DNA from: a virus
Direction: 5' to 3' (one strand)
Virus record (IMG/VR): IMGVR_UViG_3300014059_000004
Length of the DNA: 64,000 bases
Shown: positions 8,495 through 54,171 of the stretch, piece after piece
Layout: each line of letters opens with the position of its first letter
Position numbering within the stretch: position 1 is the first letter of the stretch
Position numbers and translations under genes: made by a program
Notes under the pieces: model-generated
What the model was told of the DNA's origin: nothing
The model's database searches: none
Seen by the model: the letters and a program-made list of their open reading frames with translations, nothing else

Positions 8495-8524
8495 CGAATT
8501 CAATACTTAAGGTGCAAGCAGGTT

Positions 8525-13318: not shown

Positions 13319-13319
13319 C

Positions 13320-14189
13320 ATGTCCAAGCAGTTGACACATAAGAAGAAGAGAAATTCAGGTTTGCTCTATGAATTTCTGATTCGAACGATCTCGCGCTCT
13401 CTCGTCGAAGGCGATCAAAAGAAGTCAGCGACAGCACTAAAGATTTTGAAGCGCAGCTTCAAGCCTGGCACTGAACTGTACAAGGAGTTCAGGCTCATCA
13501 ATTCGCTCGTTCGTACGACAGTTAGTTCGGAACATGTTGCTGCATCGATCATAAATGAAGCTAAAGTAGCTGCTGGTTCGTACGATTTGAAAGCTCTTGA
13601 CAAAGAGAAGTCCATCCTGATCAAGAACATCAATCATCTTATCAATGATGAAAATTTTTATGATCAACAAGTTAACGAGTACAAAGTTTACGCTACAGTG
13701 CAGACGTTGATCAACGAATGGCGATCATCTGACAAAGACATCGGAAAGCTCGCTGAGTACGAAGATCAGCTAATGAAATGGTTGACAACGGAAAAGAAAG
13801 AGCAAGAAGATAGCGTCATCAACGAGGAATCGCCGGGCACTGCCCGGCTGATGATGAAGGTCATGACCAAGAAGTTGAACGAGAAGTACTCGGGCGTCTT
13901 GAATGCTGACCAGAAGTCTTTGATGAAAGCTTACATCTTCTCAACAGCATCCAGCGATCCAACGGTTATTCAGAAGAAGCTAGCAGAGATCAAGGATTCT
14001 CTTCTTCAGAAGATCGATGCTTACTCAAAGATTGAAAAGAACAAGCTTATAAGCGAAAAGTTGTCGAATACGACGCAGCAATTGCTTACAGAAGATCTAA
14101 GCAACGTTGATGACTCTACGGTCACGCGCTTCATGCTTTACGCTAAGCTAGGATCAGAACTTGACCAAGAAGATGGGGATGAAAGATGA
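13320..14189 (+). CDS. hypothetical prohead core/scaffold-associated protein
   Basis: The ATG at 13320 is 1 nt after the portal stop, with GGAG upstream. Lies between portal and prohead protease, as do T4 gp67/gp68. Confidence 0.45.
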   Translation: MSKQLTHKKKRNSGLLYEFLIRTISRSLVEGDQKKSATALKILKRSFKPGTELYKEFRLINSLVRTTVSSEHVAASIINEAKVAAGSYDLKALDKEKSILIKNINHLINDENFYDQQVNEYKVYATVQTLINEWRSSDKDIGKLAEYEDQLMKWLTTEKKEQEDSVINEESPGTARLMMKVMTKKLNEKYSGVLNADQKSLMKAYIFSTASSDPTVIQKKLAEIKDSLLQKIDAYSKIEKNKLISEKLSNTTQQLLTEDLSNVDDSTVTRFMLYAKLGSELDQEDGDER

Positions 14190-25691: not shown

Positions 25692-25909
25692 TGCAGTACG
25701 TTAATCTATTTGAGCCGTTGCTTGCTCACAGAAAAGGACCGGCTCCTGTGTTCATCAACGTTGGTGTTCAGGCCGTTGACATGTATACTGAGTCTGGAAC
25801 TGTTGCTGCACCAGTAACGTCTGAGACTTACGTTAAGCTATCTTCATTGCCACCTGAACTGCGTGAACGCGTGAAGACAGCTGTTCAAGCTATTTTCTCG
25901 GGGATGTGA
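25688..25909 (+). CDS. hypothetical small protein
   Basis: ORF with ATGA overlap with the previous gene. Confidence 0.4.
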   Translation: MMQYVNLFEPLLAHRKGPAPVFINVGVQAVDMYTESGTVAAPVTSETYVKLSSLPPELRERVKTAVQAIFSGM

Positions 25910-26544
25910 TTAACAGAAATATCAACTGTTTCTGAAAGTCTAAGTTTCTTTAGTTCCCTAGCTTTCTTGCGCCGTGTAAGTTCTTTAGATCTCCAGATCG
26001 GATCTTGCCATAGTTTTTTCACAGCTTCTCTAGATTCAGGGTTTGACCATCGTCTGATTTGAGCATCTTTTGATTTTTGCTTAGCTTCTGGCGTGGCATT
26101 GCGCTCAGCAAGTTTTTGTCGACGCGTGTCAGACATTGGTGGATTAGACCAGTATTTCTTTTGTGCTTGGCGCATTTTTTCTTTGTGTTCTGGCGTTTTT
26201 GGAACGTTTTTCATTTTTTTGCTCATTTCTTCAGGAGCACTAGTTTTTCCACCATCACCTCCTGGCGTCATATTGTACCCGTGGTTTGGGTCGTTACTAG
26301 TAAAAATGGATATCCATTTCGATTCGCAAATGTTTGCATCAGCAGTTGTTTCTGTTGATTCTAGTATTTCATGAACCCAAGAGTCTAGAGGATATTTGCG
26401 TATAGCATGACTAATGTGAAATGATTTCCCCTTAAGGGCAGCATTAACATGTGCCTTCCAACGCTTTTCAAGCGTACTTTTTGTCTTTCCTATGTAACAC
26501 TTGCCACTGATTGTGTTAGTATGCTTGTATATGATGATTGTCAT
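25885..26544 (-). CDS. GIY-YIG homing endonuclease
   Basis: IIYKHTNTISGKCYIGKT...RWKAH...E...N. Basic C-terminal NUMOD-like repeats TPEHKEKMRQAQ / TPEAKQKSKDAQ. Opposite strand to all neighbours. Confidence 0.75.
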   Translation of the reverse strand: MTIIIYKHTNTISGKCYIGKTKSTLEKRWKAHVNAALKGKSFHISHAIRKYPLDSWVHEILESTETTADANICESKWISIFTSNDPNHGYNMTPGGDGGKTSAPEEMSKKMKNVPKTPEHKEKMRQAQKKYWSNPPMSDTRRQKLAERNATPEAKQKSKDAQIRRWSNPESREAVKKLWQDPIWRSKELTRRKKARELKKLRLSETVDISVNHIPEKIA

Positions 26545-38457: not shown

Positions 38458-39132
38458 ATGTCACGATTGTTTATAACTCCAAGAGAACTCAACTTCATCT
38501 CAGATATTACTAAGGAACTCATTAAGGACCTAGTAGGCCAGAAGATCTACTATTACCCGATCTCAGAAGCAAAGACTTTGACAGTGGGAATCTACAACGA
38601 AGCGATCAAGAAAGTTTTTGATAATCCGATAATCATCGATGCTCTCGTTGATGCCCAGTACCAGATCGATACTAAGATCGGAAAGTACGGCGTCGACCAG
38701 CAGTACAAGCTTGAACTGTTCGTTCAATACAGAGACATCGTTGAGAAAGGAATAAACATCCAGATCGGAGATTTCTTTTCTTTCAACGATGTGTTCTACG
38801 AGATAACTGAAGAGCAAGTCATGAGAAACATCTACGGCTTGCCAGAGCACAAAGATGGCGTGAAGATCGTCGGCTTGAAGGCAAGAGAAGAGCAATTCAA
38901 AGCGCTTCTCATGGGTCCAACTGACTTTGCTCGTCCAGAAGATGATGCCGTTCAGAAGACGTTTGAGCAGCAGAGAGGTCAGTCGTTGGATTCTCGTGGA
39001 GAACCTACGGGTGATGTAAGAGATTTGGTGAAAGCTGGAGTTCTTGATCCTCCGCTCACGGGGGCTCGTGAGGTTTCCTCGCGTGGTGACCCAGACGGCG
39101 TCGGATCATCATTCTACGATGAGGATCCATGA
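38458..39132 (+). CDS. putative baseplate structural protein
   Basis: ORF with no recognisable motif. Confidence 0.4.
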   Translation: MSRLFITPRELNFISDITKELIKDLVGQKIYYYPISEAKTLTVGIYNEAIKKVFDNPIIIDALVDAQYQIDTKIGKYGVDQQYKLELFVQYRDIVEKGINIQIGDFFSFNDVFYEITEEQVMRNIYGLPEHKDGVKIVGLKAREEQFKALLMGPTDFARPEDDAVQKTFEQQRGQSLDSRGEPTGDVRDLVKAGVLDPPLTGAREVSSRGDPDGVGSSFYDEDP

Positions 39133-40520
39133 CCAACAGATTTAACGCTAGAGGAGCAGTCAATCACGGTGTAGCACCGCTTCCATCTGGGTACCCAGAA
39201 GGCCCGACTACGTCCATCACCATCCCACCAGTGGGGATTGAAGATGTTGACGTGTCTTTGTTTCAGTTGTTCAACAAAGAATTGCCACTGCTTGTGACAG
39301 AAGGCGAGGGTACTGGTACGAAAAGAGTTCCGATCATCTTTGCTGGCGGCGAGAAGTGGGCACTCATCAAGAAGAACAAGTCAATAAGAGACAAGAACGG
39401 TTCTTTGATCCTACCGATCATAGTGATCGGACGCACTAACATAACGCAATCACCAGTCACTGACATCACCGGTCGGGGAATCAACCAGATGACTGGTGAG
39501 ATCATAGTGAGAAGAAAACTAGATAATTCAGACCGTAGCTACCAAGGTTTGATTAATCGAGTTTTTCTGCGTCACTCGAGTGGGCTTGGTGTGCCAGTTG
39601 CGATGGCCGACAGCGGTCAGCTAGCCACAGAGCGCCGCGTCGGCGAGCTAGGGGATGAAGTTGGTATCGTTGCTGATGGCGGCTTGATGGTACCAGATCG
39701 CACAAACAACATCTACGAGACGCTTGTTGTTCCATCACCGCAGTTTTACACAGCAACGTACGAAGTTGAGATCTGGGCGCAGTACCGTCGGCAGATGAAT
39801 CAGCTGCTTGAGACGTTGATCTCTTCTTTCTTGCCGCAGACACGTGGTTGGAAACTTTCAACACCAGCCGGTTATTGGTTCGTTGCAACGCTAGCAGATG
39901 AAAATTTCACGCCAGACATGAACTTTGATGACATGAGCACCGCGGAAAGGATGATCAAGACGAAGTTTGAGATCAACGTTCCTGCGTACATCTTGGCATC
40001 GTCAGCACCAGGCGTGCCGCTAGCTGTGAAGCGCTACGTTTCAGTCCCAGAAGTTAACTTTAGCGTCGGTCTACCGCTGCCAGAAGCGTCTGTTAGAGAT
40101 GGCGTTGATGATCCATTCTTGGGAGCTGACGATCCGACGTTGCCGTTGTCTGCCGTTAGAAATGGTAGACGTGATCAAAGAGAAACTGGGCGAGGTCGCC
40201 TGTTCATTGCTAGCGAGCAGATTGATCCAAATGATCCAGCTCTTCAAGCATTCTCAAGGGGAAGAAACCCACCTCAGTACAAGAGATACTTGGCTCGTAA
40301 TTCTCGCGGTGAACTTGTTGAAAGGTTCGTTCGAATCACAACTGTTAATTCTAACACTGGTGAAACAGTCTACTCGACGGGCGTAGACATGGGCGACTTG
40401 TCAATAGAAGTGATCGATGGATTAGCACCAATCTCACGCGGTTTTCGTCAAGAACCTTTGATACTTATCGTAGCGATTCCAACCACAGAAGAGAAGATCG
40501 ATGCCAGAGCAAACATTTAA
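39129..40520 (+). CDS. putative tail/baseplate protein immediately upstream of the sheath gene
   Basis: ORF with ATGA overlap upstream and overlap with the sheath gene start. Confidence 0.4.
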   Translation: MTNRFNARGAVNHGVAPLPSGYPEGPTTSITIPPVGIEDVDVSLFQLFNKELPLLVTEGEGTGTKRVPIIFAGGEKWALIKKNKSIRDKNGSLILPIIVIGRTNITQSPVTDITGRGINQMTGEIIVRRKLDNSDRSYQGLINRVFLRHSSGLGVPVAMADSGQLATERRVGELGDEVGIVADGGLMVPDRTNNIYETLVVPSPQFYTATYEVEIWAQYRRQMNQLLETLISSFLPQTRGWKLSTPAGYWFVATLADENFTPDMNFDDMSTAERMIKTKFEINVPAYILASSAPGVPLAVKRYVSVPEVNFSVGLPLPEASVRDGVDDPFLGADDPTLPLSAVRNGRRDQRETGRGRLFIASEQIDPNDPALQAFSRGRNPPQYKRYLARNSRGELVERFVRITTVNSNTGETVYSTGVDMGDLSIEVIDGLAPISRGFRQEPLILIVAIPTTEEKIDARANI

Positions 40521-43515
40521 GTCACCAAATTTTTACGAGCGCGAAATTGATCTTTCAGCTCCGCAGATTGCAGGTCCCGTCGGCGTACCGGCTGGTGTCA
40601 TCGGAACTAGCAACAAGGGACCAGCGTTTGTGCCGGTCACTGTTGGAAATTTTGATGAATTCGTAGCTAGATTTGGTAATCTAGATCCAAAGAGATTTGG
40701 ACCGTATGCTGTCAAAGAATTCTTGCAGCACAAGACTGCTCTAACGTACTTGAGAGTCCTTGGTGCGGGAGCGAACGCATCTTCTTCTGACATTCTTACG
40801 ACTCAAACGACCGGTCGAGTTCTGTCGGCAGGCATGTACTTGAATGGAACGGCAGCGGCTCACGATAACCTTGGTCGTCACAACGGTGCGGTGCAGTTTC
40901 TCGCTGCTCGGCACACGTTGCAGACGAACGAAGCTTACGGAATCCCACTCTTCACGGACAACGATTCTTACACTGGTTCTACTGTTAACTTGATCAGAGG
41001 CATGATCATGACGCCAACCTCTTCGAGGGTCATGGTCCTTGGTGGTGGAACTGCAGCGCCCCTTGGAACGTTCAACGGCTCGAACTCTGATTCGGCGACG
41101 CTGTCTGGCGGTAAGTTCAAGCTGATCATCTCTTCTACGTTGGGAAACACGTTCTGGAATTCAGACAACAACCCTGGTGTGAAGATCTTCACTGCAAGCT
41201 TGAACCCAACTGACGCTGATTACTTTGCGAAGATCCTTAACACAGATCCAGACAAGTTCGTCTCTGAGCAGCACTACTTGTACGCTGATTTCCCAGTTGA
41301 TGATGAGCTAGCAACAGCGACAGTCGTCGGCGTTCTCTCTGGGTCGAATGTCACTTCAGCTAACTCTGGTGACACCACGCTTGCAATGAGAAAAGCCTTC
41401 GGCGCTTTCGACACCAGGTACAAGGCACCATCAACTTCGTACTTCATCTCGCAACCTTTCGGTGCAACTGAGTACGATCTGTTCAAGTTTGAAGCTCTTG
41501 ATGATGGTGAGTATGCAAACACTCTCTACAAGATTGCAATCACCGATCTTAAGGCATCGCTTGATGATTCAAACCCTTACGGTACGTTCACCGTGCAGGT
41601 GAGAGATTGGACAGACACGGACACGAATCCTAAGGTTCTGGAGTCATTCCCTAACTGCTCTTTGAATCCAACCGCTACGAACTACGTTGCGAAGCTAGTT
41701 GGCGATAGAAAAGTTACGTTCAACTTCGATGCAACAATTGACGCCGAGCGCAGGATTGTCACCTTCGGAAAGTACGATAACAAGTCCAAGTACGTCAGAA
41801 TCGTCATGACAGATGCTGTCGAGAGAGCGCTAGTTCCTCAGAAGACGCTTCCGTTCGGATTTCATGGACATCAGCTTCCGAAGACAAACGATCTTCTGAC
41901 TGATACGTCTCCTTCGACAGCAACGTCAAGGTTGGCGGCATCGTTGGGCGTATCTGTTGCATCGTCTCTGTCTGGTTCCTTGCTTCCGCCCGTGCCTTTC
42001 AGAGTGAAAGTTACGAAGGGCGACGCACCTTCTGGCGCAGCTTGGCAAGGTCTACCAGGTTCAACAGAGCTTGTTTTGTCGCAGCTTTACTGGGGCGTTA
42101 AGTTCGAAAGAAACACGAATGCTCTGAACCCAAATCTTGTCAGCGAGAAGAACGCGCTGCTTGCATCTTACACGAAGTTCCTTGGCATCGACAAGCTCGA
42201 TGTTCTTGTAAGCGGATCGGGTGCAGATACGTTCAACAACAACAAGTTCACGCTTGCCAAGGTTGCTTTCTCCAACGCCGCGATCACGCACCTCACTGCA
42301 TCAGTTACTGAGCACATGAAGGAAGCTGCGTACATCAGAAACGGTAAGCTTGATACGTCGAACTACACGATCAACGATTCAGCTATCGGAACGAGAGTTA
42401 CGCTAGCTACGATCCTTGCAAAGGACACGGCAGCGAACTTTAACAAGTTCTCTACGTTCACCAAGTTCGTCACCTTCATGGGTGGCGGCTGGGACGGTGT
42501 CAACATCCTTGATAGGGATGCACGCAGGCTCAACGATAAGGCATCATCGTTCGATGCGGGTGGCGGAGCAGAAGTTGGTTACACCGCACCAGGCCTTGGA
42601 TTCAATCCAAGCGGTACTGATCAGCTTAACTCGACTGTTGCGTCTTACAAGACTGCAGTTGATATCATGACTGATCCAATGACTGTCAACACTAACATCC
42701 TCACGATCCCTGGTATCAGAGAGACGTTTGTGTCTGATTACGCTATGAAGAAGGTGCGTGACTACGGTCTAGCATACTACGTCATGGACATTCCTTCGTA
42801 CGATGATGCATCAGCTCGCCTGTACGATGATTCAACAGCGCGCCCATCTGTTGACAAGACGGCGGAGCAAGTTGACACAAGAGCGATTGATAACAACTAC
42901 GCTGGAACGTACTACCCAGACGTATACATTGATGATGCTACGAACAAGCGTAGGGTCAAGGTGCCGGCGTCTGTTGCAGCGATGGGTGCTTTGGCATTCA
43001 ACGACAGGGTTGCATATCCTTGGTTCGCACCAGCAGGTTTCAACAGAGCGTCTCTTGACTTTGTCAGCAATGTTGCTGTCAGATTGAACGTCTCTGACAG
43101 AGATAGGCTTGATGCTTCTAGGATCAACCCGATCGCAACTTTCCCAAGGTTGGGCTTTGTGATCTACGGTCAGAAGACGCTGCAGATCAACAAGTCTGCT
43201 CTTGACAGAGTCAACGTCAGGCGTCTCCTCCTAGAAGTCAAGAGAATCATCATTGACATCGCGCAGCGTGGCGTGTTTGAGAACAACACGCCAGAAGTTA
43301 GAAACAAGTTCGTTGCAGATGCAACGTTGCAGCTCGGACTCATCCAGGCGCAAGCTGGTGTTGAGCAGTTCCAAGTTGTGATGAACGAAACGAACAACAC
43401 GCAGGAAGACGTCGATCTTAACCGCCTCAACGGAAAGATCATGATTGTTCCAACACGCACAATCGAGTATATCGCGATCGATTTTGTGATCACGAACAGC
43501 GGAGTAGTTTTTTAA
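40501..43515 (+). CDS. tail sheath protein, copy 1 (gp18-like, 1004 aa)
   Basis: N-terminal SPNFYEREIDLSAP...PAGVIGTSNKGPAFVPVTVG resembles the gp18 N-terminal pattern. The conserved C-terminal block ALDRVNVRRLL...PTRTIEYIAIDFVITN is paralogous to the 44443 gene. Confidence 0.8.
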   Translation: MPEQTFKSPNFYEREIDLSAPQIAGPVGVPAGVIGTSNKGPAFVPVTVGNFDEFVARFGNLDPKRFGPYAVKEFLQHKTALTYLRVLGAGANASSSDILTTQTTGRVLSAGMYLNGTAAAHDNLGRHNGAVQFLAARHTLQTNEAYGIPLFTDNDSYTGSTVNLIRGMIMTPTSSRVMVLGGGTAAPLGTFNGSNSDSATLSGGKFKLIISSTLGNTFWNSDNNPGVKIFTASLNPTDADYFAKILNTDPDKFVSEQHYLYADFPVDDELATATVVGVLSGSNVTSANSGDTTLAMRKAFGAFDTRYKAPSTSYFISQPFGATEYDLFKFEALDDGEYANTLYKIAITDLKASLDDSNPYGTFTVQVRDWTDTDTNPKVLESFPNCSLNPTATNYVAKLVGDRKVTFNFDATIDAERRIVTFGKYDNKSKYVRIVMTDAVERALVPQKTLPFGFHGHQLPKTNDLLTDTSPSTATSRLAASLGVSVASSLSGSLLPPVPFRVKVTKGDAPSGAAWQGLPGSTELVLSQLYWGVKFERNTNALNPNLVSEKNALLASYTKFLGIDKLDVLVSGSGADTFNNNKFTLAKVAFSNAAITHLTASVTEHMKEAAYIRNGKLDTSNYTINDSAIGTRVTLATILAKDTAANFNKFSTFTKFVTFMGGGWDGVNILDRDARRLNDKASSFDAGGGAEVGYTAPGLGFNPSGTDQLNSTVASYKTAVDIMTDPMTVNTNILTIPGIRETFVSDYAMKKVRDYGLAYYVMDIPSYDDASARLYDDSTARPSVDKTAEQVDTRAIDNNYAGTYYPDVYIDDATNKRRVKVPASVAAMGALAFNDRVAYPWFAPAGFNRASLDFVSNVAVRLNVSDRDRLDASRINPIATFPRLGFVIYGQKTLQINKSALDRVNVRRLLLEVKRIIIDIAQRGVFENNTPEVRNKFVADATLQLGLIQAQAGVEQFQVVMNETNNTQEDVDLNRLNGKIMIVPTRTIEYIAIDFVITNSGVVF

Positions 43516-43552
43516 TTCCGCAATTAAGTTTAGTTGATGTATACGTATTAAC

Positions 43553-44338
43553 ATGAAAATGTGGTACGTATACGAAGACTGGACGACGGAAGATAATCCC
43601 AGATGTTATTACGTTGGTAAGGGTGATGATGATCGTATTATGAAAGTTAAACGAAATCAACATCATACCAACGTAGTTTCTTTGTACGGATTTGATCGTC
43701 GTATTGTGCTTACAACGTCTTCAGAAATAGAAGCTCTAGAGCTGGAACGAAAGTTGATTGTTGAACGTCAGACTTATTCTAAAGCGATTGACTACAATGG
43801 TATTGGTTGTAATCTTACTCTTGGTGGACAAGGAAATTCAGGTCGAATAGTGACTGAAGAAACCTGCAGAAAAATTTCTGATGCTAAACGCGGGAAAAAA
43901 TCAACCAAAATTTGGTCAGATGCAGAACGTACTGCGACTTCTATTAGAATGAGCAATCTTCATAAAGGTAAACGCATTAGTGAAGAACACAAAAGTATTC
44001 TTAAAGCGAGAATGTCAGATCCAGAAATTAAGCAAGATATGATTGACAAAGTCAGTGCGTCACTCAAGAAAAAGTATGAATTTGATTTGAGTTTTCGACA
44101 GCGAATTGTTGAAACACGCGCTCGCGGTGAAAATAATCCTAACACTCCATTTACTGAAGACGATGTTAGAAAAATGAGAGATGAATGGAGACAAGTTGAC
44201 AAAGTTACAAAGGGTAATAGATGGTCAGGAATTTCTCCTTCATCGAAATTTTGTAATTGCTGGGCTGAGCGTTTTGGAGTTACTACTCAAGCAATAATTG
44301 CTATTGTTACAGAGAAAACATGGAAACATCTGCTATGA
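43553..44338 (+). CDS. GIY-YIG homing endonuclease with NUMOD3-like repeats
   Basis: MWYVYED...CYYVGKG...R...E. GRIVTEETCRKISDAKRG and KGKRISEEHKSILKARMSD are NUMOD3-like. AT-rich relative to the flanks. Confidence 0.7.
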   Translation: MKMWYVYEDWTTEDNPRCYYVGKGDDDRIMKVKRNQHHTNVVSLYGFDRRIVLTTSSEIEALELERKLIVERQTYSKAIDYNGIGCNLTLGGQGNSGRIVTEETCRKISDAKRGKKSTKIWSDAERTATSIRMSNLHKGKRISEEHKSILKARMSDPEIKQDMIDKVSASLKKKYEFDLSFRQRIVETRARGENNPNTPFTEDDVRKMRDEWRQVDKVTKGNRWSGISPSSKFCNCWAERFGVTTQAIIAIVTEKTWKHLL

Positions 44339-44389
44339 CAATTAGAGTCAATTTTCGGCTGATGGTGAAATTACGAGTTCAACAACAAT

Positions 44390-44414
44390 CTTTCCGCACG
44401 TAGTGTGCGGAAAG
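44390..44414 (+). terminator. hairpin (terminator or processing site) directly upstream of sheath copy 2
   Basis: 10-bp stem CTTTCCGCAC-gtagt-GTGCGGAAAG. Confidence 0.4.
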
Positions 44415-44442
44415 ATTGATACTTACACTGCAGAGGCATAGG

Positions 44443-47400
44443 ATGTCACAGATAAAGTTTGGAAGTGCTGGAGTTTCAGCAAAAGAAATTGACCTATCAG
44501 GTCCAGTTGTTCAGCAACCTGTCGGCATCCCAGCCGGCGTCATCGGAACTGCAACAAAGGGTCCGGCATTCGTGCCAGTCACCGTTGGTTCTATCGATGA
44601 CTTCTACCTAAAGTTCGGCAAGACAGACGGAAAAAAGTTCGGTCCGCTTGCTGTTACTGAGTGGCTAAGAAACGCCGGAGCTTTGACGTACGTTCGAGTT
44701 CTTGGTGTAGGTGACGGCAAGCAAAGAGTTGCTGATGGAACGACTGCTGGCTCTGTCACAAACGCAGGTTTCACAGTCGGTAGCTTGCAACCACGATCAT
44801 CTGATGGTGCTCTAGCTGGAAACAATTACGCAAACTCTGGAACGCTTGGTTCACCGCTTGGAAGAACGTATTTCCTCGGCGCCTTCATGTCAGAGTCTGC
44901 TGGTTCAACAGCGTTCTCTGATGCAGGCCTGCAGGGCGCAGGTTCTGTAACACCTGGCATCACAAGCTCAGTTCCAGTCCTCAGAGGTGTGCTTATGGCA
45001 CCTTCTGGCGTCATCCTTCGCCTCTCATCGTCTGCTGAAGGAACGAACTCAGCACCTTCTTCCACGCTTGTTGCTACAGATGCTACTGCAAACGGCAGCA
45101 TGATCGGTGCAGTTGTTTTGACAGATGGATCAGTTTCGAAGCAAGACTTTGTCATGCTTCTCAATGGTCACAAGGGAACAGATCCTCTGTACCCGAATGT
45201 GATCACTGCATCCTTCGATCTTACTTCGCCAAATTACTTTGCAAACGTTCTGAACACTGATCCTTACAAGATGCAGCAAGCAGGTCACTACCTGTACGCA
45301 TCTTGGGACATCCACCCAGCAGTGGCTGCAGTCACTGGTTCTGGCCTAGTGTACCCAGTCAGCGGTGCTGCAGGTTCTCAAGTCGCTAAGTCTGGACAAG
45401 AATCATCAGCATTCTTGACAACTGGCTCACTTGGAAGAAACCTTGGTTCTTCGACTGTGCCAAACTACGAGTCATTCTCTGATAGATTCTCACACGCTAA
45501 GTCACCTTGGGTTATCTCTCAGAAGTTCGGTGGTTCTGCGGCTAACCTGTTCAGATTGCATGCTCTAGACGCCGGCGCTGGAGTTTCTACTCTCTACAAG
45601 GTGTCTATCGAGAACATCACTCCTTCGTCTGACTCGCAGAATCGTTACGGTACCTTCGATCTTGTCTTGAGAGATTGGTCTGATAGAGACGGTAACTTGA
45701 TTCCTCTCGAGCAGTTCAGAGGTTTGTCGCTCGATCCAAGCTCTGATCGTTACATTGCTAAGATCATCGGTGACGCTCACGTGTTCTACGACTTTGATCG
45801 TTCAGAACCGGCACAGAAGTTGGTTGTCGATGGAAACTACACAGCTAACTCTAACCTCGTAAGAGTTGAAGTTGATCCTGGTGTTGAGAACCAGACCGTC
45901 GATCCAACCGCTCTTCCGATGGGTTTCAGGGGCATTGAGCACCTGGTCACGTCCGGATCTGCTCCGATGACGTCAATTGCAGGAACGCAGCTGAGCGCGG
46001 CAACTTACCTGAAGAGAGTGGTCACTCCACCTCTTCCAATGAGAACAAACATCACCGCTGGCAGCGGTAACAAGGTTCAAGTGAACCCGCTTCTTTACTG
46101 GGGCGCTCAGTTTGAGCATGTCACCAGCTTGTCAACGCCAAATGCATCGACGTACAAGAACGATTCGATGAAGGCTTTTGCCAAGTACTTCCCTAACTTC
46201 TCCACTGTGAACCAGAACTTCTCAGTTGGTGATAACACGGGAGACGTCGACACAGACACGTGGGGCATCATCGACGCAGATAGGTTCTGCAACAACATGT
46301 TCACGCTGGAAAATATCCAAGTTGTGACTGGTTCGACCACGTACGCTGATTCTGCTCAGTGGGCATCTGCTCAGTACGTCAGGAACGGAAACATCACTGC
46401 TTCTGATTCTGCGAAGACTCGTAGATTCTCTGTCAATGACTTGATTCAGGCAAACAGAAGGTACGCAAAGTTCTCCTTCTTGATGCAAGGTGGTTTCGAT
46501 GGCGTCAATCTGTTTGACAGAGACTCTGTTGAGATCAACAACGCCGCAGTCACCGCAGACATGAACTCCACGACAAGAAATCGTGATCAAGGTGCAAACG
46601 TAAGATCTTACGCAAAAGCACTCGAGATCATGAAGAACGTCGTTAGCGTCGATGTTCAGCTGCTGGCAATACCAGGCATCAGGCATGCAATCGTAACAGA
46701 TGCTGCTGCTGATGCAGTCAGAGAGAGATTCGACGCTCTTTACATCATGGACATCGAGCAGTTCGACAACACGGGCGTTGAAGTTACATCTGACAGCCAG
46801 ATGCCTTCTGTCACGTCGACGGCTTCATCGTTCAGCTCTAGGGCAGTTGACAACAGCTTTGCAGCTGCATACTTCCCAGACGTTGTGATGCCAGATCCTA
46901 ACACGAAGACTAACCTCGTGGTTCCTCCTTCTGTTGCAGTCCTGGGCGCTCTAGCGTTGAATGACGCTGTGGGTCACCCATGGTTCGCACCAGCAGGCTT
47001 CACCAGAGGCGCTCTGTCGACGACGCTGGAAGCAAGAGTTCAGCTGTCCAAGACGAACATGGATGCTCTGTACGATGTCAACATCAACCCAATCGTTGCA
47101 TTCCCAGGAAATGCATCTGGTGGAACTAGCCCGAAGGGTGGAGTTGTCGTGTGGGGTCAGAAGACGCTTCAGGCTGCTGCATCTGCTCTTGACAGAGTCA
47201 ACGTAAGACGACTCCTGATCGAGATCAGAAGGCAAGTCAGAGACATCTCTAGGACGATCATCTTCGAGCCAAACAGAGCAGCAACGCTCGCAAGGTTCTC
47301 TTCAGCCGTCACGCCACGTCTGCAGAGAATCCAGGCACTGTCTGGTCTTGAGAGGTTCAGGGTCATCATTGATTCTTCAACCACGACGCAAGCAGACATC

Positions 47401-47514
47401 GAGAACAACACGATTCGCGGTAAGATCTTCGTGCAGCCAACCCGTACGATAGAGTATGTCAGTCTTGATTTTGTTGTAACAAACAACATTCAAGCAGCAT
47501 TAACTTCCAACTGA
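44443..47514 (+). CDS. tail sheath protein, copy 2 (gp18-like)
   Basis: The ATG at 44443 has a GAGG RBS; the ORF track starts at the TTG at 44416, inside the hairpin. N-terminus EIDLSGPVVQQPVGIPAGVIGTATKGPAFVPVTVG and C-terminus ALDRVNVRRLLIEIRR...PTRTIEYVSLDFVVTN are paralogous to copy 1. Confidence 0.8.
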   Translation: MSQIKFGSAGVSAKEIDLSGPVVQQPVGIPAGVIGTATKGPAFVPVTVGSIDDFYLKFGKTDGKKFGPLAVTEWLRNAGALTYVRVLGVGDGKQRVADGTTAGSVTNAGFTVGSLQPRSSDGALAGNNYANSGTLGSPLGRTYFLGAFMSESAGSTAFSDAGLQGAGSVTPGITSSVPVLRGVLMAPSGVILRLSSSAEGTNSAPSSTLVATDATANGSMIGAVVLTDGSVSKQDFVMLLNGHKGTDPLYPNVITASFDLTSPNYFANVLNTDPYKMQQAGHYLYASWDIHPAVAAVTGSGLVYPVSGAAGSQVAKSGQESSAFLTTGSLGRNLGSSTVPNYESFSDRFSHAKSPWVISQKFGGSAANLFRLHALDAGAGVSTLYKVSIENITPSSDSQNRYGTFDLVLRDWSDRDGNLIPLEQFRGLSLDPSSDRYIAKIIGDAHVFYDFDRSEPAQKLVVDGNYTANSNLVRVEVDPGVENQTVDPTALPMGFRGIEHLVTSGSAPMTSIAGTQLSAATYLKRVVTPPLPMRTNITAGSGNKVQVNPLLYWGAQFEHVTSLSTPNASTYKNDSMKAFAKYFPNFSTVNQNFSVGDNTGDVDTDTWGIIDADRFCNNMFTLENIQVVTGSTTYADSAQWASAQYVRNGNITASDSAKTRRFSVNDLIQANRRYAKFSFLMQGGFDGVNLFDRDSVEINNAAVTADMNSTTRNRDQGANVRSYAKALEIMKNVVSVDVQLLAIPGIRHAIVTDAAADAVRERFDALYIMDIEQFDNTGVEVTSDSQMPSVTSTASSFSSRAVDNSFAAAYFPDVVMPDPNTKTNLVVPPSVAVLGALALNDAVGHPWFAPAGFTRGALSTTLEARVQLSKTNMDALYDVNINPIVAFPGNASGGTSPKGGVVVWGQKTLQAAASALDRVNVRRLLIEIRRQVRDISRTIIFEPNRAATLARFSSAVTPRLQRIQALSGLERFRVIIDSSTTTQADIENNTIRGKIFVQPTRTIEYVSLDFVVTNNIQAALTSN

Positions 47515-47527
47515 ATCAGTTAACTTC

Positions 47528-47563
47528 AAACGCTCGGATTGTTCATCCGAGCGTTTGTTTGTT
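47528..47563 (+). terminator. rho-independent terminator after sheath copy 2
   Basis: 12-bp stem AAACGCTCGGAT-tgttc-ATCCGAGCGTTT followed by GTTTGTTT. Confidence 0.65.
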
Positions 47564-47593
47564 ACAATAGTACCAACTGAATTGAGTAACTTA

Positions 47594-48415
47594 ATGCATG
47601 TTATCTACAGACACACAAACAAACTAAATTTGAAAATTTATGTCGGGCAAACAGTAACGTTGAATGAAAATACAGCTGAAGAGTCTATGTACAAAAGATG
47701 GGCATCACATTGCAAAGATGCAAAATTGAATTCAAAACTAAGATTTCACGTAGCAATTAGAGATTTTGGAGAAGAAAATTTTCTTCATGAAGTTATAGAA
47801 ATATGTGAAAATCAAGAGCAAGCAAATCAACTAGAAATATTTTGGATCGAAAAACTTAAATCGTATGTTGCTTACGGTGGTTATAACATGATCCTCGGAG
47901 GTGGCGTTGGATCTGGCAGTAGAAATCCAATGGCTATTTTGACAGAAGAAATTGTAGCTAAGATAAAAGCAGCATGGAATGAAGAAAAACCATACGAAAC
48001 GTTGTTGTTGGGTGAATTTTATCAAAAATATGCTAAGCTTTATGGTGTTAAACCAGACACTATAACCCACATCATTAAAGGCAGATTGTGGATGGGTGTT
48101 GGGCCCATTGTTGAATGTTCATCAAATGATCATACCGGCAAAAGTCCAATAACCGGCTCCAAGTTGAAGAAGAAATGGAAAGAAGATGAAGACTTTCGTC
48201 AGAGAGAAATCAAAAAACGACAAGGTGAGAATAATTCAAGTGCAAAATTGTCAGAAGAAACTATTCGACAAATAAGACTAGACTTCCAGCAAGTTGATGT
48301 AACTAAATTTGGTGCAAAATCAATTTTCTACAGACATATGGCTGAAAAATATTCTGTGACGCCAGAGTTGATATGCGGAATTGTCAGAAGAACGTGTTGG
48401 AAGCACGTCACTTAA
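47594..48415 (+). CDS. GIY-YIG homing endonuclease
   Basis: MHVIYRHTNKLNLKIYVGQT...KRW..H...E motifs. AT-rich. The ORF track begins at an upstream alternative start at 47555. Confidence 0.7.
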   Translation: MHVIYRHTNKLNLKIYVGQTVTLNENTAEESMYKRWASHCKDAKLNSKLRFHVAIRDFGEENFLHEVIEICENQEQANQLEIFWIEKLKSYVAYGGYNMILGGGVGSGSRNPMAILTEEIVAKIKAAWNEEKPYETLLLGEFYQKYAKLYGVKPDTITHIIKGRLWMGVGPIVECSSNDHTGKSPITGSKLKKKWKEDEDFRQREIKKRQGENNSSAKLSEETIRQIRLDFQQVDVTKFGAKSIFYRHMAEKYSVTPELICGIVRRTCWKHVT

Positions 48416-48428
48416 TACTTAACTTTAG

Positions 48429-48770
48429 ATGAAAATTACTGAATCGCAGCTAAGAAAGTTGATCAAGGAAGTTCTGAAGGAAGAGGCTGAACTGTCCGAA
48501 GCATCCATGGAGCAAGCCAAAGTCCAGGGTCCGCTTAGAGACTTGTACACTTCCCTTCAGACTGCCAAGAAGCAGCTTGGCCGTGAGGGTGCAAAGAGAG
48601 CCGTGTCAGAGCTGATGCAGAACACTTCTGAGTCTGAGAAGGCTCAGCAGCTGCTGAAGGCGATCACGCAGATCGAATCAAACATCGATTCAGTGATGAA
48701 CTGGCTCAATAGCACTTCAGCTTCAAGCATGACCAAAGACCCTTGGGCAGGCGTGGGCAAGAGAAGCTGA
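48429..48770 (+). CDS. hypothetical small protein with a CTS-like N-terminal leader
   Basis: N-terminal ITESQLRKLIKEVLKEE leader motif. Confidence 0.5.
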   Translation: MKITESQLRKLIKEVLKEEAELSEASMEQAKVQGPLRDLYTSLQTAKKQLGREGAKRAVSELMQNTSESEKAQQLLKAITQIESNIDSVMNWLNSTSASSMTKDPWAGVGKRS

Positions 48771-48832: not shown

Positions 48833-50620
48833 TCAATCTGTGGGCCGTAGAGACGGTAAGAGCGCCATCTCGTAGAGCATGTTGCCGCACCCATATATCT
48901 TGACAACGCCAGCTTCTTCTGCAACTTGAGCTTCAGTCAGACCCATGGGTTTGTTGGCTTTGAACTTGAAGCGATTGAAGCGGTTGTCAAAGTCAGTCCA
49001 CCAGAATCGTGGAGGCGTAGAAGAATTAAACTTCCAACCAGCGCGTTCCCATGACTTGCCATTTGTTCCTAGTCGAGTGTCGATGTAAGATATCATCTTG
49101 CGTGCTCCCATCAGCTTTGACTGTGCAGCACAGTGCTTTGTCAGACGACCCAGCCATCCTCTGACGTTAACGTTTGACTTGCAGCACGCTCTAGCAATTT
49201 CAATTGCATCTTTGTGCGCAGAATGAAACGGTTTTCTTACTGACATGCAAGCAAGCAGCTCATCATTTTCAAACAACCCGTACGCAGCATTGCTAGCAAC
49301 GTCTCCATCGATGTGATTCACGTTGAAGAATGCTTTACGTTCTTGCGTGCTCACGCTTCGCACAGTGCACTTTCTTGCATCGTACTTTTTAGAATGAAGC
49401 TTAAGCTTATGATCGATCATGCTGCAGACGATGTCACGCTTGTTTTTCCATTCATCTTCGAAGATGTGAAGAAGGTTAACTTGATTCTCTTGAGCCTTGA
49501 TTGACTTGTTGTTGTGATAGATAGAAGACTTGTTTATGACGCTGTGCCAGTACAACCCATTGTACTCGATCCCAAAGCGATGTTCCGGAACGTAGATATC
49601 AATTTCCAGACCTTGCAGAACGTCTCTCCTACAAGAATCAACAGCAACATTCTTGCTCTTTACGTACTGATATATTTCAGATTGCGCAACTGAACCAGTC
49701 GAATCGCAAGACCAGCATCTTCCAGATTGAAGGCGCCGCAACGAGCTGTTCCATTCTTTTGAGCACCGCGTGCACTTCACGCTTATGTTAGGAACGTTGT
49801 CATTGATGTAGCAAGATGCATCAGGCATGTTCAACGCAAGCGTTCCATGAGATTCAACTCGCTCTTTTATCTCTTCGTACATCAATCTCTTTGATGCATC
49901 AAGCTTCTCTCTCAAGTTTTTATTTGAGTGTGTTATAGCAACTTTTGCTGCCATCGCAGCGATCTTTTCGCTGCTTGCTTTGTTGAGACCTTTTGCCCAA
50001 GGAACCAACTGTCCTTCTTGAAACATCCTAGAAAGATTATCGCTAGTTGCTTTAAGCCTATCGTCTGTTTCTTTAGTGAGACCCTTCGACCAGATCTTTA
50101 TCTTACCTTCTTCAAATGCTGCTTTTCTTCCGGCGCTTGTTGATGCTGCTCTTGATGCGACCCTTGGGTCTGTTTCTTTAGTGAGACCTTTCGCCCAACC
50201 TGTCTTGCCTCTAAGCTTGTTCTTTCTGCTTTCTGAGATTTGAGCAGCTTTTTCTGGGGAGTATACTGCGTATATGTTCGAACTGTGTCCCTTCAACGTT
50301 CCGTTATAACCGCTGTGCCAAGATATCCAAGTTGTTTCTGCTCCGCAACCGCACTTACACTTGATCGGTCCGTTGTTGACCTTATCCCAAGCATCTTTTG
50401 TCGTCATAGAGTGCAATGACTTCATGTGTTCATCGAACGCAGTTAGCTTCTTTGTGGTGAATTCGCAGAACGGACAGTTAGCCGCAGCTGGATTCTTTCT
50501 AATAGCGTACATGCAAGCTCTGCATGGTTTGTTCTTCTTGGCTGCGCCTCGGGCTGCAGCATCATTTGCATGTTCTATGATTTGTGAACATGACGGACAT
50601 GTTCGTTCATTAGGTTTCAT
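48833..50620 (-). CDS. free-standing homing endonuclease (C2H2 + CxCGCG + W.KGLTKET repeats + Vsr/DUF559-like PD-(D/E)XK core)
   Basis: CPFCEFTTKKLTAFDEHMKSLH, CKCGCG and three W(A/S)KGL(T/N)KE repeats. IEYNGLYWHS...LLHIFEDEW. C-terminal PRFWWTDFDNRFNRF...VKIYGCGN is shared with the 51286 gene. Confidence 0.7.
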   Translation of the reverse strand: MKPNERTCPSCSQIIEHANDAAARGAAKKNKPCRACMYAIRKNPAAANCPFCEFTTKKLTAFDEHMKSLHSMTTKDAWDKVNNGPIKCKCGCGAETTWISWHSGYNGTLKGHSSNIYAVYSPEKAAQISESRKNKLRGKTGWAKGLTKETDPRVASRAASTSAGRKAAFEEGKIKIWSKGLTKETDDRLKATSDNLSRMFQEGQLVPWAKGLNKASSEKIAAMAAKVAITHSNKNLREKLDASKRLMYEEIKERVESHGTLALNMPDASCYINDNVPNISVKCTRCSKEWNSSLRRLQSGRCWSCDSTGSVAQSEIYQYVKSKNVAVDSCRRDVLQGLEIDIYVPEHRFGIEYNGLYWHSVINKSSIYHNNKSIKAQENQVNLLHIFEDEWKNKRDIVCSMIDHKLKLHSKKYDARKCTVRSVSTQERKAFFNVNHIDGDVASNAAYGLFENDELLACMSVRKPFHSAHKDAIEIARACCKSNVNVRGWLGRLTKHCAAQSKLMGARKMISYIDTRLGTNGKSWERAGWKFNSSTPPRFWWTDFDNRFNRFKFKANKPMGLTEAQVAEEAGVVKIYGCGNMLYEMALLPSLRPTD

Positions 50621-50727: not shown

Positions 50728-51219
50728 ATGCCAGCAGAGACACTAGACGTTTCGTCAATGATTCCGAACAAATTCGAGCCAAAGCGTAAAAATCGTTTCG
50801 TCTTGATGATCGAAGGTATCGATGCATACCTGATTAAAACAGCAGCTCGTCCGACGGTGACGACGGAAGAAGTTGAGATTCCATTCATCAACTCTCACCG
50901 TTACCTCGCCGGCAAGACGAAGTTTAACACGATCGCTGTGACTCTCTATGATCCGATCGCACCATCCGGCGCGCAGCAGGTCATGGAGTGGATCAGAACG
51001 TGCTACGAGAGCGTGTCCGGCCGTGCTGGTTACGCTGACTTCTACAAGAGAGATATCCAGCTTAAGATGTTGGATCCTGTCGGTACAGTAGTCGAACTAT
51101 GGGATGTCAAAGGTGCATTCTGCACTGAAGTCAACTTCGGTGAATTGACATATGAAGACGGTGGACCAGGAGAAATTTCTCTAACGATCAGAGCTGATAA
51201 CTTCGTTCTACAGTTCTGA
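50728..51219 (+). CDS. tail tube protein (gp19-like, 163 aa)
   Basis: Same length as T4 gp19. KRKNRFVLMIEG resembles gp19 RPNLFQVEI. C-terminal WDVKGAFCTEVNFGELTYEDGG...ISLTIRADNF resembles KGLWPTNVGELQLDWDSNNEIQTFEVTLALDYWE. Lies downstream of the sheath. Confidence 0.7.
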   Translation: MPAETLDVSSMIPNKFEPKRKNRFVLMIEGIDAYLIKTAARPTVTTEEVEIPFINSHRYLAGKTKFNTIAVTLYDPIAPSGAQQVMEWIRTCYESVSGRAGYADFYKRDIQLKMLDPVGTVVELWDVKGAFCTEVNFGELTYEDGGPGEISLTIRADNFVLQF

Positions 51220-51285
51220 AGCACAGATTGCAACATCAGTTGCAACTGGAATATACAACTTTGTAGGCTGTGGTATAGTTATGCC

Positions 51286-52947
51286 ATGGCCTACGATCGT
51301 ATCAAGTGTCCGAACTGTTCTCTTGATTTTGGGCAAGAGCTTCGTTTCCTAGATCATCTAACAGATGTGCATGGGATCACTGACCATGAACAACATTACG
51401 TTGATGTTATTTTGAGTGGGATCAAACCGACATGTGGTTGTGGTTGCAACGAACACGTTAACTGGTCTAGTTGGAAGAAGGGTTACACGTCAAAGTTCAA
51501 ACGTGGACACAATGCCGTTGTCGATTCCGTGTATCTAAATCCAGAGAAGCAAGTGGAATTTGCAAGGAAAAGACATGATGGTTATGCTAGTGGCCAGTAC
51601 AGCACTTGGAACAAAGGCCTGACGAAAGAAACGTCTGAGAAAGTTGCGATAACTTCTCAGAAGATATCAACTTCCTTGAAAGAAGGATATAAGTCAGGAA
51701 CGATCATTGATTGGCACAAAAAAGATCCTGCAGCGGCCGTCGCCGCAGCCACGAAAATCTCAAGCACAAAAAAGAAGAAATTTCAAACTGGTGAACTGAA
51801 CGTCTGGAACAAAGGTATGACTAAAGAATCAGATGAAAGAGTTGCATCAGTTTCAAACACAATAAAGCATCAAATTGAAGCGGGTCATGTTATTCCTTCA
51901 AAAAGATTGTCATCTGATGAATTTTTGTCATTGATTTCGAAACAAAAGACTTTTTCTTTGGTGTCTGATCCTTCAACATATAAAAACAAATATGTAAAAT
52001 TTGACTTTAAGTGCAATACCTGCGGAAAAATATCAAAAAAGAACTTGATGATGATAAAGAGCGTTCCTGTTTGCTTTAACTGTCATCCTAAGGAATCCAA
52101 AGCACAGATCGAAATATACGATTACGTTCGATCCTTGGCGCCTGATGCAGTGCTTTCTGATAGAACTGTAATCTCACCAAAAGAGATTGATGTGTTTGTT
52201 CCTTCGAAGAAGTTCGGAATTGAGTATGATGGTCTTTATTGGCACAGTGAAATTATCGATAGCGACAAGAAAAGAAGCCAAAAGAAGCATGATGCTGCAT
52301 TGAATGTTGGAGTAAAGCTTCTTCACATATTTGAAGATGAATGGCGAGACAAGCAAGAACTTGTGAAATCAATGATAGCTTACAGGCTTGGAACATCTTC
52401 AAAAGTAATTGGTGCACGTAAGTGTGAAGTGAAAGCACTTACAGTTCAACAAAGAAAGCAATTCATGAATGCTAATCACCTTGAAAATGATTGCAATTCT
52501 TCTGCTTCATGGGGATTGTTTTACAATGGTGAGCTTGTTTCCGCGCTATCACTTCGTCGTCCTTTTCATGCACGTTATAGAGATGCATACGAAGTTGGCA
52601 GGTTCTGCAACCTGATGAACACAACCGTTCCAGGAGCTCTTTCTAAGTTGCTTAAGGTTGCTATAACTTGGGCGAAAAATAAAGGTGCTGCTCGCCTGCT
52701 GTCTTACGTTGATCTTCGCATAGGGGATGGTTCTGGATACGAAAAAGCTGGCTTTAAGCTCATCTCCAGTTCAAGTCCAAGATTTTGGTGGACAGACTAC
52801 AAGAATCGCTTGAATCGTTTTGCTGTAAAAGCTGATGCATCTTCGGGTTTGACACAAATAGATGCAGCGAAGAACGCTGGCGTTGTAGCGATTTGGGGAT
52901 GTGGTAATCAAATACTAGAGCTGAACATTGAGGAGAAGAGTGAATGA
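51286..52947 (+). CDS. free-standing homing endonuclease, paralog of the 48833 gene
   Basis: CPNCSLDFGQELRFLDHLTDVHG, CGCGCN, WNKGLTKETSEKV and WNKGMTKESDERV. IEYDGLYWHSE...LLHIFEDEW. PRFWWTDYKNRLNRF...VAIWGCGN. Confidence 0.7.
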   Translation: MAYDRIKCPNCSLDFGQELRFLDHLTDVHGITDHEQHYVDVILSGIKPTCGCGCNEHVNWSSWKKGYTSKFKRGHNAVVDSVYLNPEKQVEFARKRHDGYASGQYSTWNKGLTKETSEKVAITSQKISTSLKEGYKSGTIIDWHKKDPAAAVAAATKISSTKKKKFQTGELNVWNKGMTKESDERVASVSNTIKHQIEAGHVIPSKRLSSDEFLSLISKQKTFSLVSDPSTYKNKYVKFDFKCNTCGKISKKNLMMIKSVPVCFNCHPKESKAQIEIYDYVRSLAPDAVLSDRTVISPKEIDVFVPSKKFGIEYDGLYWHSEIIDSDKKRSQKKHDAALNVGVKLLHIFEDEWRDKQELVKSMIAYRLGTSSKVIGARKCEVKALTVQQRKQFMNANHLENDCNSSASWGLFYNGELVSALSLRRPFHARYRDAYEVGRFCNLMNTTVPGALSKLLKVAITWAKNKGAARLLSYVDLRIGDGSGYEKAGFKLISSSSPRFWWTDYKNRLNRFAVKADASSGLTQIDAAKNAGVVAIWGCGNQILELNIEEKSE

Positions 52948-53307: not shown

Positions 53308-54171
53308 ATGTCAGAAGATCGCGAAGTAAAGAACGAAATTTTTAGAGGCGCCGCTGTAGATCCACGAATTCCTACGACGACTGCTGCCGAAAAGGTGAAG
53401 GCTGATTTCGGTCTAGACATTCCAGTTGAAACAGTGCCACTGCCCAGCGCTGGCCTGACGTATCCAACGTCATCGCCATTGCACGGCAAAGAGACTGTTG
53501 ATATCAAGTCGATGACGGCTAGGGAAGAGGATATTCTCACCAGCAAAGCTCTCTTGAAGAAGGGAACTGTGATCACCGAACTGATCAAGTCGTGCCTTGT
53601 TGACAAGTCTGTCGATCCGCGTGACATGCTGTCTGGCGATCGCAATGCACTGATGGTCGCGATCAGAATCACTGGTTACGGTGCTGAGTACGATGCAGAG
53701 CTAGAGTGCCCAGAATGCGGCACGAAGGCTTCCCGCCAGTTTGATCTTTCTCGCCTTCCGATCAAGAGGTTGACGATCGAACCAGTCGTTCAAGGAACGA
53801 ACTTGTTTGCATGTCTCCTACCAGTCAGCAGAAAGATGGTTCACTTCAAGTTCATCACTGGTAAGGATGAAGAAGACATGTCAGCAACAGCTGAGAAGCA
53901 GAAGAAGCTTGGTCTTGCGTCTGATGCAACTGTCACCAGCAACTTGCTGTACTCTATCGTCTCGATCGACGGCATCGATGATCGCTCTAAGATCGCAGGA
54001 TTTGTTAGGTCAATGCCGGCACGAGACTCCTTGACGCTTCGTAATTACATCAAGGATCATGAGCCAGGCATTGAGATGAGGCAAGAAACTTCTTGCCCTT
54101 CATGCGATCATGAAGAGGAGGTACAGATGCCGCTAGGCGTCAACTTTCTTTGGCCTTCGGCCGGAAGATAA
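53308..54171 (+). CDS. hypothetical Zn-ribbon protein (tail module)
   Basis: CPECG...CPSCDHEEE. RBS gaaggaataacacATG. Confidence 0.4.
   Translation: MSEDREVKNEIFRGAAVDPRIPTTTAAEKVKADFGLDIPVETVPLPSAGLTYPTSSPLHGKETVDIKSMTAREEDILTSKALLKKGTVITELIKSCLVDKSVDPRDMLSGDRNALMVAIRITGYGAEYDAELECPECGTKASRQFDLSRLPIKRLTIEPVVQGTNLFACLLPVSRKMVHFKFITGKDEEDMSATAEKQKKLGLASDATVTSNLLYSIVSIDGIDDRSKIAGFVRSMPARDSLTLRNYIKDHEPGIEMRQETSCPSCDHEEEVQMPLGVNFLWPSAGR

Follow-up and report, generated by a model that had tools for sequence, protein, structure and literature searches.

Tandem tail sheath paralogues in a clade of uncultured T4-superfamily phages, and a homing endonuclease gene in the spacer between them

Contractile sheaths are textbook homopolymers, and PaBG, the sole experimentally studied phage exception, was described as unique. 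The 64,000-nucleotide viral sequence IMGVR_UViG_3300014059_000004 (this whole stretch is called "the window" below) encodes two adjacent full-length tail sheath paralogues, sh1 and sh2, separated by a free-standing homing endonuclease gene (HEG1). Comparison with relatives shows that this tandem arrangement, which has three paralogues in some lineages, arose independently of the PaBG pair and is fixed throughout a very large and widespread clade of uncultured large phages. It seems probable (roughly 0.6) that both proteins co-assemble in a single contractile sheath whose outer surface is heterogeneous; a heteromeric sheath is the best supported reading because both proteins have full-length sheath folds, are under equal selection and have upstream motifs of their own, and because PaBG provides a precedent. 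The two genes are as follows.

40501-43515, + strand: sh1, tail sheath paralogue 1 (PHROG 23, AlphaFold2 model, joint profile, dN/dS)
44443-47514, + strand: sh2, tail sheath paralogue 2 (PHROG 23, Pfam Phage_sheath_1C, AlphaFold2 model, dN/dS)

The sh1 open reading frame (ORF) encodes 1004 amino acids (aa) and that of sh2 encodes 1023. The mechanically called sh2 ORF opens at a TTG codon at 44416, and the ATG at 44443 is preferred as its start because every orthologue opens with a sequence like MAQLKFGSAGV. BLASTP joins the two proteins in one full-length alignment that is well past chance (35% identity, 541 bits, E = 0), and they are collinear throughout. The original prediction, made from the sequence of the window, had recognized two paralogous ~1000-aa sheath genes at these positions, with conserved blocks at both ends, a diverged middle and a length about 50% greater than that of T4 gp18. 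The genes are confirmed as sheath paralogues by their 35% identity, their PHROG 23 matches and their gp18-like models; both blocks were found in the BLASTP alignment (EIDLS..P.G.PAGVIGT..KGPAFVPVTVG at the N-terminus and ALDRVNVRRLL...PTRTIEY..DFV.TN at the C-terminus, each present in both proteins), and 1004 and 1023 aa are about 1.5 times the 659 aa of gp18.

The PHROG 23 "tail sheath" family is matched by sh1 at E 5e-55 and by sh2 at E 7e-58. The Pfam model Phage_sheath_1C scores 28.8 bits with sh2 (cut-off 26.9) and 18.3 bits, below the cut-off, with sh1, and a joint profile built from the orthologues of both matches residues 458-647 of T4 gp18, its C-terminal domain, at E 2e-38. AlphaFold2 models, made from 120-sequence alignments, have a pLDDT of 85.5 and a pTM of 0.86 for sh1 and values of 83.1 and 0.81 for sh2, and the order of secondary-structure elements is nearly identical in the two. 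When the models are compared with the PDB by Foldseek, the top matches are T4 gp18 chains (sh1, E 2.7e-19; sh2, E 3.4e-20), followed for both by other phage, pyocin and injection-system sheaths, and every named BFVD match is a sheath or tail protein. It had been considered that structural prediction might reveal one copy to be a different tail protein; with gp18 as the top PDB match of each, the models indicate that both are tail sheaths and that neither is anything else.

The genomic position of the pair, in the window and in its relatives, is that of sheath genes, with a gp15-like gene upstream (a weak match) and a gp19 tube gene downstream.

39129-40520, + strand: gp15-like candidate tail-sheath stabiliser/terminator (weak match to Pfam T4-gp15_tss, E 1.2e-4, below cut-off)
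50728-51219, + strand: tail tube protein, gp19-like (Pfam Phage_T4_gp19, 28.3 bits; PHROG 4542, E 5e-29)

The gp15-like gene overlaps the start of sh1 by 20 nucleotides (nt), and its slot upstream of sh1 is kept in all relatives. The tube gene is the usual downstream neighbour of sheath genes and follows sh2 in the relatives as well; in the window three endonuclease genes and a small ORF, orf113, intervene. Only one tube gene is present. The likeness to T4 extends to a T4-type portal and a T4-type baseplate protein encoded elsewhere in the window, along with a major head protein and a large terminase. On the other hand, T4 has one sheath gene, of 659 aa (the length of the PDB chain), whereas sh1 and sh2 are duplicated, are ~350 aa longer by virtue of a larger middle region and are 12-14% identical to gp18 in structural alignment.

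The closest relative is contig IMGVR_UViG_3300033121_002020, whose DNA is 94-96% identical to that of the window. Measured against it, the ratio of nonsynonymous to synonymous substitution rates (dN/dS) is 0.019 for sh1, 0.019 for sh2 and 0.023 for the tube gene. The nonsynonymous distances (dN) to three of the related loci, which are designated here by L numbers, are as follows.

dN against L083: sh1 0.150, sh2 0.152
dN against L085: sh1 0.170, sh2 0.175
dN against L006: sh1 0.225, sh2 0.227

These rates indicate that both are maintained as functional genes under equal and strong purifying selection. The joint alignment of the two families has 934 columns, and 183 of these are at least 90% conserved and identical across both families; another 60 are at least 90% conserved within each family and differ between them, and these lie throughout the protein, the C-terminal core included. 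The most divergent and gap-rich stretches fall, as predicted, in the middle region, which flanks the segments that align to the N-terminus and the C-terminal domain of gp18. In several lineages sh2 bears extra in-frame domains near residue 131, which bring its length to 1176-1507 aa. The whole pattern fits a core that forms the lattice and is conserved, combined with outer domains that differ and can evolve.

The sh2 genes with these large insertions were seen in L064 (12190-15720), L115 (5281-9477), L116 (11203-14754) and L117 (11239-15762), and the insertions are low-complexity sequences rich in Gly, Ser, Thr and Ala. An intron or intein in sh2 was considered for these four loci, where the tblastn matches are split, and was rejected: the ORFs are continuous and that of L117 has no intein domain.

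Relatives of sh1 are encoded by 240 IMG/VR stretches, and 105 loci were analysed. In 101 of these 105 sh1 is followed by sh2, and the remaining four are cut by contig ends, so a comparison of single with double sheaths, which had been proposed as a check, finds the double state in 101 loci and the single state in the isolate Microcystis phage Mel-JY01. The usual sh1-sh2 spacer in the relatives is 40-130 nt. Orthologues are 57-99% identical among the IMG/VR loci, and the paralogues remain at ~35%. With E <= 1e-10 as the limit, a large protein database yields 2472 proteins related to sh1 and 2310 related to sh2; contigs, some of them up to about 357 kb long, occur in both sets, and in IMG/VR the contigs reach 369 kb. 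More distant relatives, mostly labelled as marine, share 46-50% identity with sh1 and 45-47% with sh2, and their genes, too, stand in the order sh1-sh2-tube. The clade is large and widely distributed; its members are uncultured phages of the T4 superfamily whose genomes range from large to jumbo size.

These distant relatives sit in metagenome-assembled genomes (MAGs) labelled Flavobacteriales, Halobacteriovorax and Methylococcaceae TMED69. Likewise, clade contigs (L114, L116 and L117, and the contig of protein P0165) were noted inside MAGs labelled Patescibacteria (one contig of 300 kb), Halobacteriovorax and Methylococcaceae TMED69 (306 kb). The placement of clade contigs in bacterial MAGs is most likely mis-binning and is no evidence of the host.

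In a neighbour-joining tree (100 bootstraps) the sh1 and sh2 proteins form two separate clades, each with 100% support, which are sister groups with 77% support. Judged by eye, the branching of the two subtrees largely agrees, and the groups window+L083+L085, L005+L006+L009 and L093+L102 recur in both. Because the paralogues form separate 100% clades with largely congruent subtrees, the duplication is older than the radiation of the clade, and the two genes have been passed on together ever since.

One subclade has a third sheath paralogue after sh2, which derives from sh2 (about 51% identical to it and nested in the sh2 clade with 100% support). It is 48-70% identical between lineages whose sh1 and sh2 are 73-93% identical, and so evolves much faster. 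An ORF for this third sheath protein stands between sh2 and the tube gene in L017, L025 (16292-19429), L026, L037, L040, L097, L100 and L103, and truncated third copies stand at contig ends in L036, L096 and L106. Apparently independent tandem pairs were also observed in neighbouring lineages. The published 484-kb uncultured phage LR756508.1 (L109) has two 824-aa sheath genes about 1 kb apart (7464-9938 and 10953-13427); in the neighbour-joining tree one of them lies outside sh1+sh2 (87%) and the other groups with the sheath of Mel-JY01 (89%). A ~115-kb contig binned as Microbacteriaceae (L124) has a pair of 583 and 577 aa that are 53% identical (7755-9506 and 9542-11275). Tandem sheath duplication thus appears to be recurrent across lineages.

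A short sequence motif stands in front of each sheath gene, and a hairpin follows each.

40460-40467, + strand: promoter-like GATACTTA copy, 34 nt 5' of the start codon of sh1
44386-44418, + strand: hairpin, 14-bp stem (-25.3 kcal/mol, z = -4.96)
44418-44425, + strand: promoter-like GATACTTA copy, 18 nt 5' of the start codon of sh2
47527-47557, + strand: strong hairpin resembling an intrinsic terminator, directly 3' of sh2, 13-bp stem followed by TTTGTT

The window contains six copies of GATACTTA, all on the + strand, where about one is expected. The looser pattern [GA]ATA[CG]TTA has ten copies on the + strand (1841, 8502, 17890, 22672, 27195, 31000, 40460, 44418, 48414 and 54420) and none on the - strand, and each copy lies roughly 5-50 nt before the start of an ORF (if a downstream ATG is assumed for those at 1841 and 22672); ATAGTTA also occurs at 51275 (+). 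In the relatives, ATA[CG]TTA was counted within 80 nt upstream of the genes, over distinct upstream regions and against a background of 0.016 per 80 nt, with the following results.

Upstream of sh2: 60 of 69
Upstream of sh1: 43 of 69
Upstream of the tube gene: 19 of 52
Upstream of the gp15-like gene: 1 of 61
Upstream of p224 (224-aa ORF, 38458-39132): 1 of 50
Upstream of p287 (287-aa T4-type baseplate protein, 53308-54171): 0 of 29

The motif is thus nearly absent (0-1 cases) before internal operon genes.

The hairpin before copy 2 had been noticed in the original prediction and is indeed there, with its 14-bp stem and a z of -4.96. It abuts the sh2 motif, lies downstream of the endonuclease cassette and is unchanged in the endonuclease-free relative, and its likeliest role is as a hairpin at the 3' end of the sh1 transcript. 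A role as a conserved regulator of copy 2 was considered and rejected as a general feature, as most relatives have a spacer of 40-60 nt and no hairpin; hairpins after sh1 occur in the closer relatives only, where their sequences are unrelated.

The precedent for a sheath of two proteins is the Pseudomonas jumbo phage PaBG, whose gp76 and gp213 are 38% identical and, as PMC7412058 reports with reference to Kurochkina et al. 2018 (Virology), are both present as bands in the structural proteome (SDS-PAGE and mass spectrometry). The same source gives duplication as the presumed origin of the pair and names Lu11 and NCTB as relatives (PMC7412058). The likeness to the window is considerable: two full-length sheath paralogues are present in one large myophage, their divergence is similar (38% identity in PaBG and 35% here), and duplication is the presumed origin in both cases, although the PaBG proteins were seen in virions and those described here are known as genes. 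The differences are that in PaBG some 119 kb separates the two genes, whose products have 528 and 547 aa, whereas those of the window are adjacent, encode ~1000 aa each and sometimes number three in the clade. Common descent of the two pairs was not found; in the neighbour-joining tree PaBG gp76 and gp213 are monophyletic (100% bootstrap) and far from sh1 and sh2. Because the PaBG pair is monophyletic and separate from sh1/sh2, the sh1/sh2 duplication is independent of that in PaBG, and the resemblance is convergent; the sheath described here may function as that of PaBG does, but it does not belong to the same lineage.

If both proteins do co-assemble, sh1 and sh2 would polymerise around the single gp19-type tube as a two-component sheath like that of PaBG. 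The conserved inner domains and the N- and C-terminal segments would be common to both, and the different outer domains of their middle regions would lie on the surface of the tail. Each gene appears to be transcribed from its own copy of the motif, the terminator-like hairpin stands after sh2, and HEG1 entered the spacer recently, just upstream of the hairpin that follows sh1. Such co-assembly would offer many natural pairs of proteins for study of how heteromeric lattices are specified, how they contract and how their outer domains diversify.

Several points weigh against such a two-component sheath. In the nearest isolate, Microcystis phage Mel-JY01, one sheath gene of 812 aa precedes the tube gene, and a 1348-aa ORF (annotated as hypothetical) occupies the slot of the 1544-aa tape-measure candidate of the window; since a phage with one sheath gene has an ORF of comparable size in that slot, two sheath proteins are not required for this tail type. 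The statement in the original prediction that T4-like phages normally have a single sheath gene is therefore true of Mel-JY01, but it is not universal, as PaBG and Lu11 have two such genes and other lineages have tandem pairs. A DNA near-identity search of ~50,000 phage records gave no match, and no isolate of the clade is among them. The 60 paralogue-specific positions could equally mean that each protein is specialised for certain rings only, or that the two assemble separately. Finally, the upstream motif is a candidate phage promoter, perhaps a late one, solely from its position, strand bias and conservation.

A stricter form of the co-assembly reading is that the two proteins make an obligate heteropolymer in which they hold ordered, non-equivalent lattice positions (for example in alternating rings, or three and three in one ring), with sh2, and the fast-evolving third paralogue where there is one, serving as an evolvable platform for the display of extra surface domains. 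This can be put forward only tentatively. Were it true, such a sheath would alter the helical repeat or the symmetry of the tail, and no natural heteromeric phage sheath of such wide occurrence would have come before it; its origin would be independent of PaBG.

Less likely is a position-specific sheath, in which one paralogue forms the bulk of the structure and the other builds special rings, as an adaptor, at the baseplate or neck. Pvc3/Pvc4 and Afp3/Afp4 are minor sheath paralogues with an adaptor role of this kind at the baseplate or neck. Three sheath paralogues of extracellular contractile injection systems, Afp2, Afp3 and Afp4 (PMC12961389), are among the structural matches of both models, and the paralogue-specific positions, some of which lie in the core, suggest non-equivalent contacts. 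The third, faster-evolving paralogue of some lineages also speaks for this reading. A minor adaptor would, however, be expected to differ from the main protein in architecture or expression, and sh1 and sh2 are equal in length, conservation and substitution rate and have the same promoter-like motif in front of each.

The Afp and PVC injection systems, which build their sheath from several adjacent paralogues (Afp2/3/4, Pvc2/3/4; PMC12961389), resemble the window in that the sheath paralogues are encoded side by side for one contractile particle and have in common with sh1 and sh2 the core fold of the sheath. They differ in that their paralogues are ~350-450 aa long and unequal in size and belong to capsid-less, tailocin-like particles of bacteria, whereas those of the window are of equal size and are accompanied by genes for a large terminase, a T4-type portal and a major head protein; the window is thus not a capsid-less injection-system cluster.

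It is improbable that one paralogue lies outside the contractile lattice and polymerises into a separate structure, for instance a layer or decoration on the outside of the sheath. The paralogues do differ mainly in the presumably surface-exposed middle region, sh2 has gained the in-frame domains described above in several lineages, and the two-sheath phages of the PaBG type belong to a lineage termed "hairy" myoviruses (PMC7909554). Yet the N-terminal block and the complete gp18-like C-terminal core are retained in both proteins, with the degree of conservation typical of sheath proteins that form the lattice, and there is the single tube gene.

Nor is there much to recommend alternative sheaths, with each virion using one or the other for host range or escape from defence, which is also an improbable arrangement even though two and sometimes three diverged copies are present, the third evolves fast and the surface domains vary. 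Neither an invertible segment nor a diversity-generating element nor any other switch lies in the region; the two genes always occur together, side by side and in one orientation, each preceded by the same motif; and their equal, strong purifying selection is unlike that of a diversification module. In addition, the sheath is not a known receptor-binding component.

The weakest explanation is a recent duplication associated with the homing endonuclease and leaving one redundant or decaying copy. The original prediction had raised an endonuclease-associated duplication, an endonuclease does lie between the copies, and the region is crowded with such genes, but this explanation is refuted: the closest relative has both sheaths while its endonuclease site is empty, every informative relative in the clade has the pair whereas the endonuclease is sporadic, the paralogues are 35% identical and form deep separate clades while orthologues are 46-99% identical, and dN/dS is 0.019 for both copies. 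Duplication driven by the endonuclease is rejected because that relative has both sheaths together with the empty site, and HEG1 is instead a recent mobile insertion into a short sh1-sh2 spacer, with no part in the duplication. It and a second gene of the same kind are placed as follows.

43520-44358, + strand: free-standing homing endonuclease cassette, 839 bp (alignment and blastn breakpoints against L002)
43553-44338, + strand: HEG1 ORF, GIY-YIG-type/NUMOD3, 261 aa (PHROG 314, Pfam NUMOD3)
47594-48415, + strand: HEG2, second free-standing GIY-YIG endonuclease gene, between sh2 and the tube gene (Pfam GIY-YIG, E 5e-8; PHROG 314, E 2e-27)

The cassette is inserted 4 nt past the sh1 stop codon, and its breakpoints in the window (43519|44359) correspond to 13019|13020 in L002, where the closest relative has the empty site TAATTCC|CTGATGG. 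The endonuclease that had been predicted between the copies is borne out by a match to PHROG 314 "homing endonuclease" (E 4.7e-10), by the DNA-binding module NUMOD3 of Pfam (24.2 bits against a cut-off of 20.4) and by homology to the GIY-YIG gene HEG2 (29% identical, E 6e-15). The Pfam GIY-YIG model gave no match to the N-terminus of HEG1 even at E up to 10, and the family assignment rests on the HEG2 homology, on PHROG 314 and on motifs: the sequence of HEG1 reads as a YVY-x11-YYVG...R...E...N pattern, and genes in the same slot of relatives show FYVYVD...FYVGKG. For HEG2, the start at 47594 (MHVIY) is preferred; the mechanically called TTG at 47555 overlaps the terminator hairpin.

The exact HEG1 protein is encoded by nine short metagenome contigs, in the same slot after a C-terminal fragment of sh1 wherever the flanks are on the contig, and three of these contigs have a sheath-sized gene (~900-1000 aa) next. 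Related genes of GIY-YIG type lie in the sh1-sh2 spacer of a few lineages only (L021, L022 and L091/L092), and the spacer of L011 holds an unrelated gene. Single-nucleotide differences from the closest relative fall to ~0 over about 300 bp to each side of the HEG1 site, against a background of ~10 per 200 bp. Similarly, there are 0-3 differences per 200 bp from L002 at 43200-44600 and across HEG2 (47400-48400), and about 10 elsewhere. These low-difference tracts may be the trace of recent recombination or homing.

Like the free-standing GIY-YIG homing endonucleases of T4-type phages (the Seg proteins, with an I-TevI-type catalytic domain and NUMOD DNA-binding modules), HEG1 is a small intergenic ORF with NUMOD3 and with relatives of GIY-YIG type; it is polymorphic in presence, and its empty site is precise and lies between essential genes that are conserved. 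It differs from the Seg proteins in that its catalytic domain is too diverged for a match to the Pfam GIY-YIG model; its homing activity is a prediction. The locus illustrates cleanly how a homing endonuclease can enter the spacer that separates two essential structural genes, and it cautions that a neighbouring endonuclease is not to be read as the cause of a duplication.

Searchable literature on two, three, multiple or duplicated tail sheath genes contained no description of the tandem pair of this clade, and sheath genes are not mentioned in the paper "Clades of huge phages"; a search for a paper on Mel-JY01 gave nothing.

Endonuclease genes are dense around the tail genes of the window, and their presence varies among the relatives. 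Two zinc-finger endonuclease genes flank the tube gene (48833-50620, - strand, and 51286-52947, + strand); their products, of 553-595 aa, are 38% identical, match PHROG 3339/559 and have the motif GIEYxGLYWHS. A further GIY-YIG gene lies at 25885-26544 (- strand). The closest relative also has an insertion of ~995 bp (L082, 20708-21712), absent from the window at about 55145, that encodes a 334-aa protein with the endonuclease-like motif VQFDGVYWHG, a polymorphism in the reverse direction to that of HEG1. Amid the endonuclease genes after sh2 lies orf113 (48429-48770, + strand), which encodes 113 aa, has no family match and has its own upstream copy of the motif; it is conserved at 36-57% in the closer relatives. 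The portal gene (8525-13318, + strand) is a 1597-aa ORF of T4 type (Pfam Portal_T4, E 2e-63) in which residues 866-1247 form an intein splicing domain and residues ~347-388 an HNH endonuclease, and it is probably interrupted by an intein, possibly with more than one insertion.

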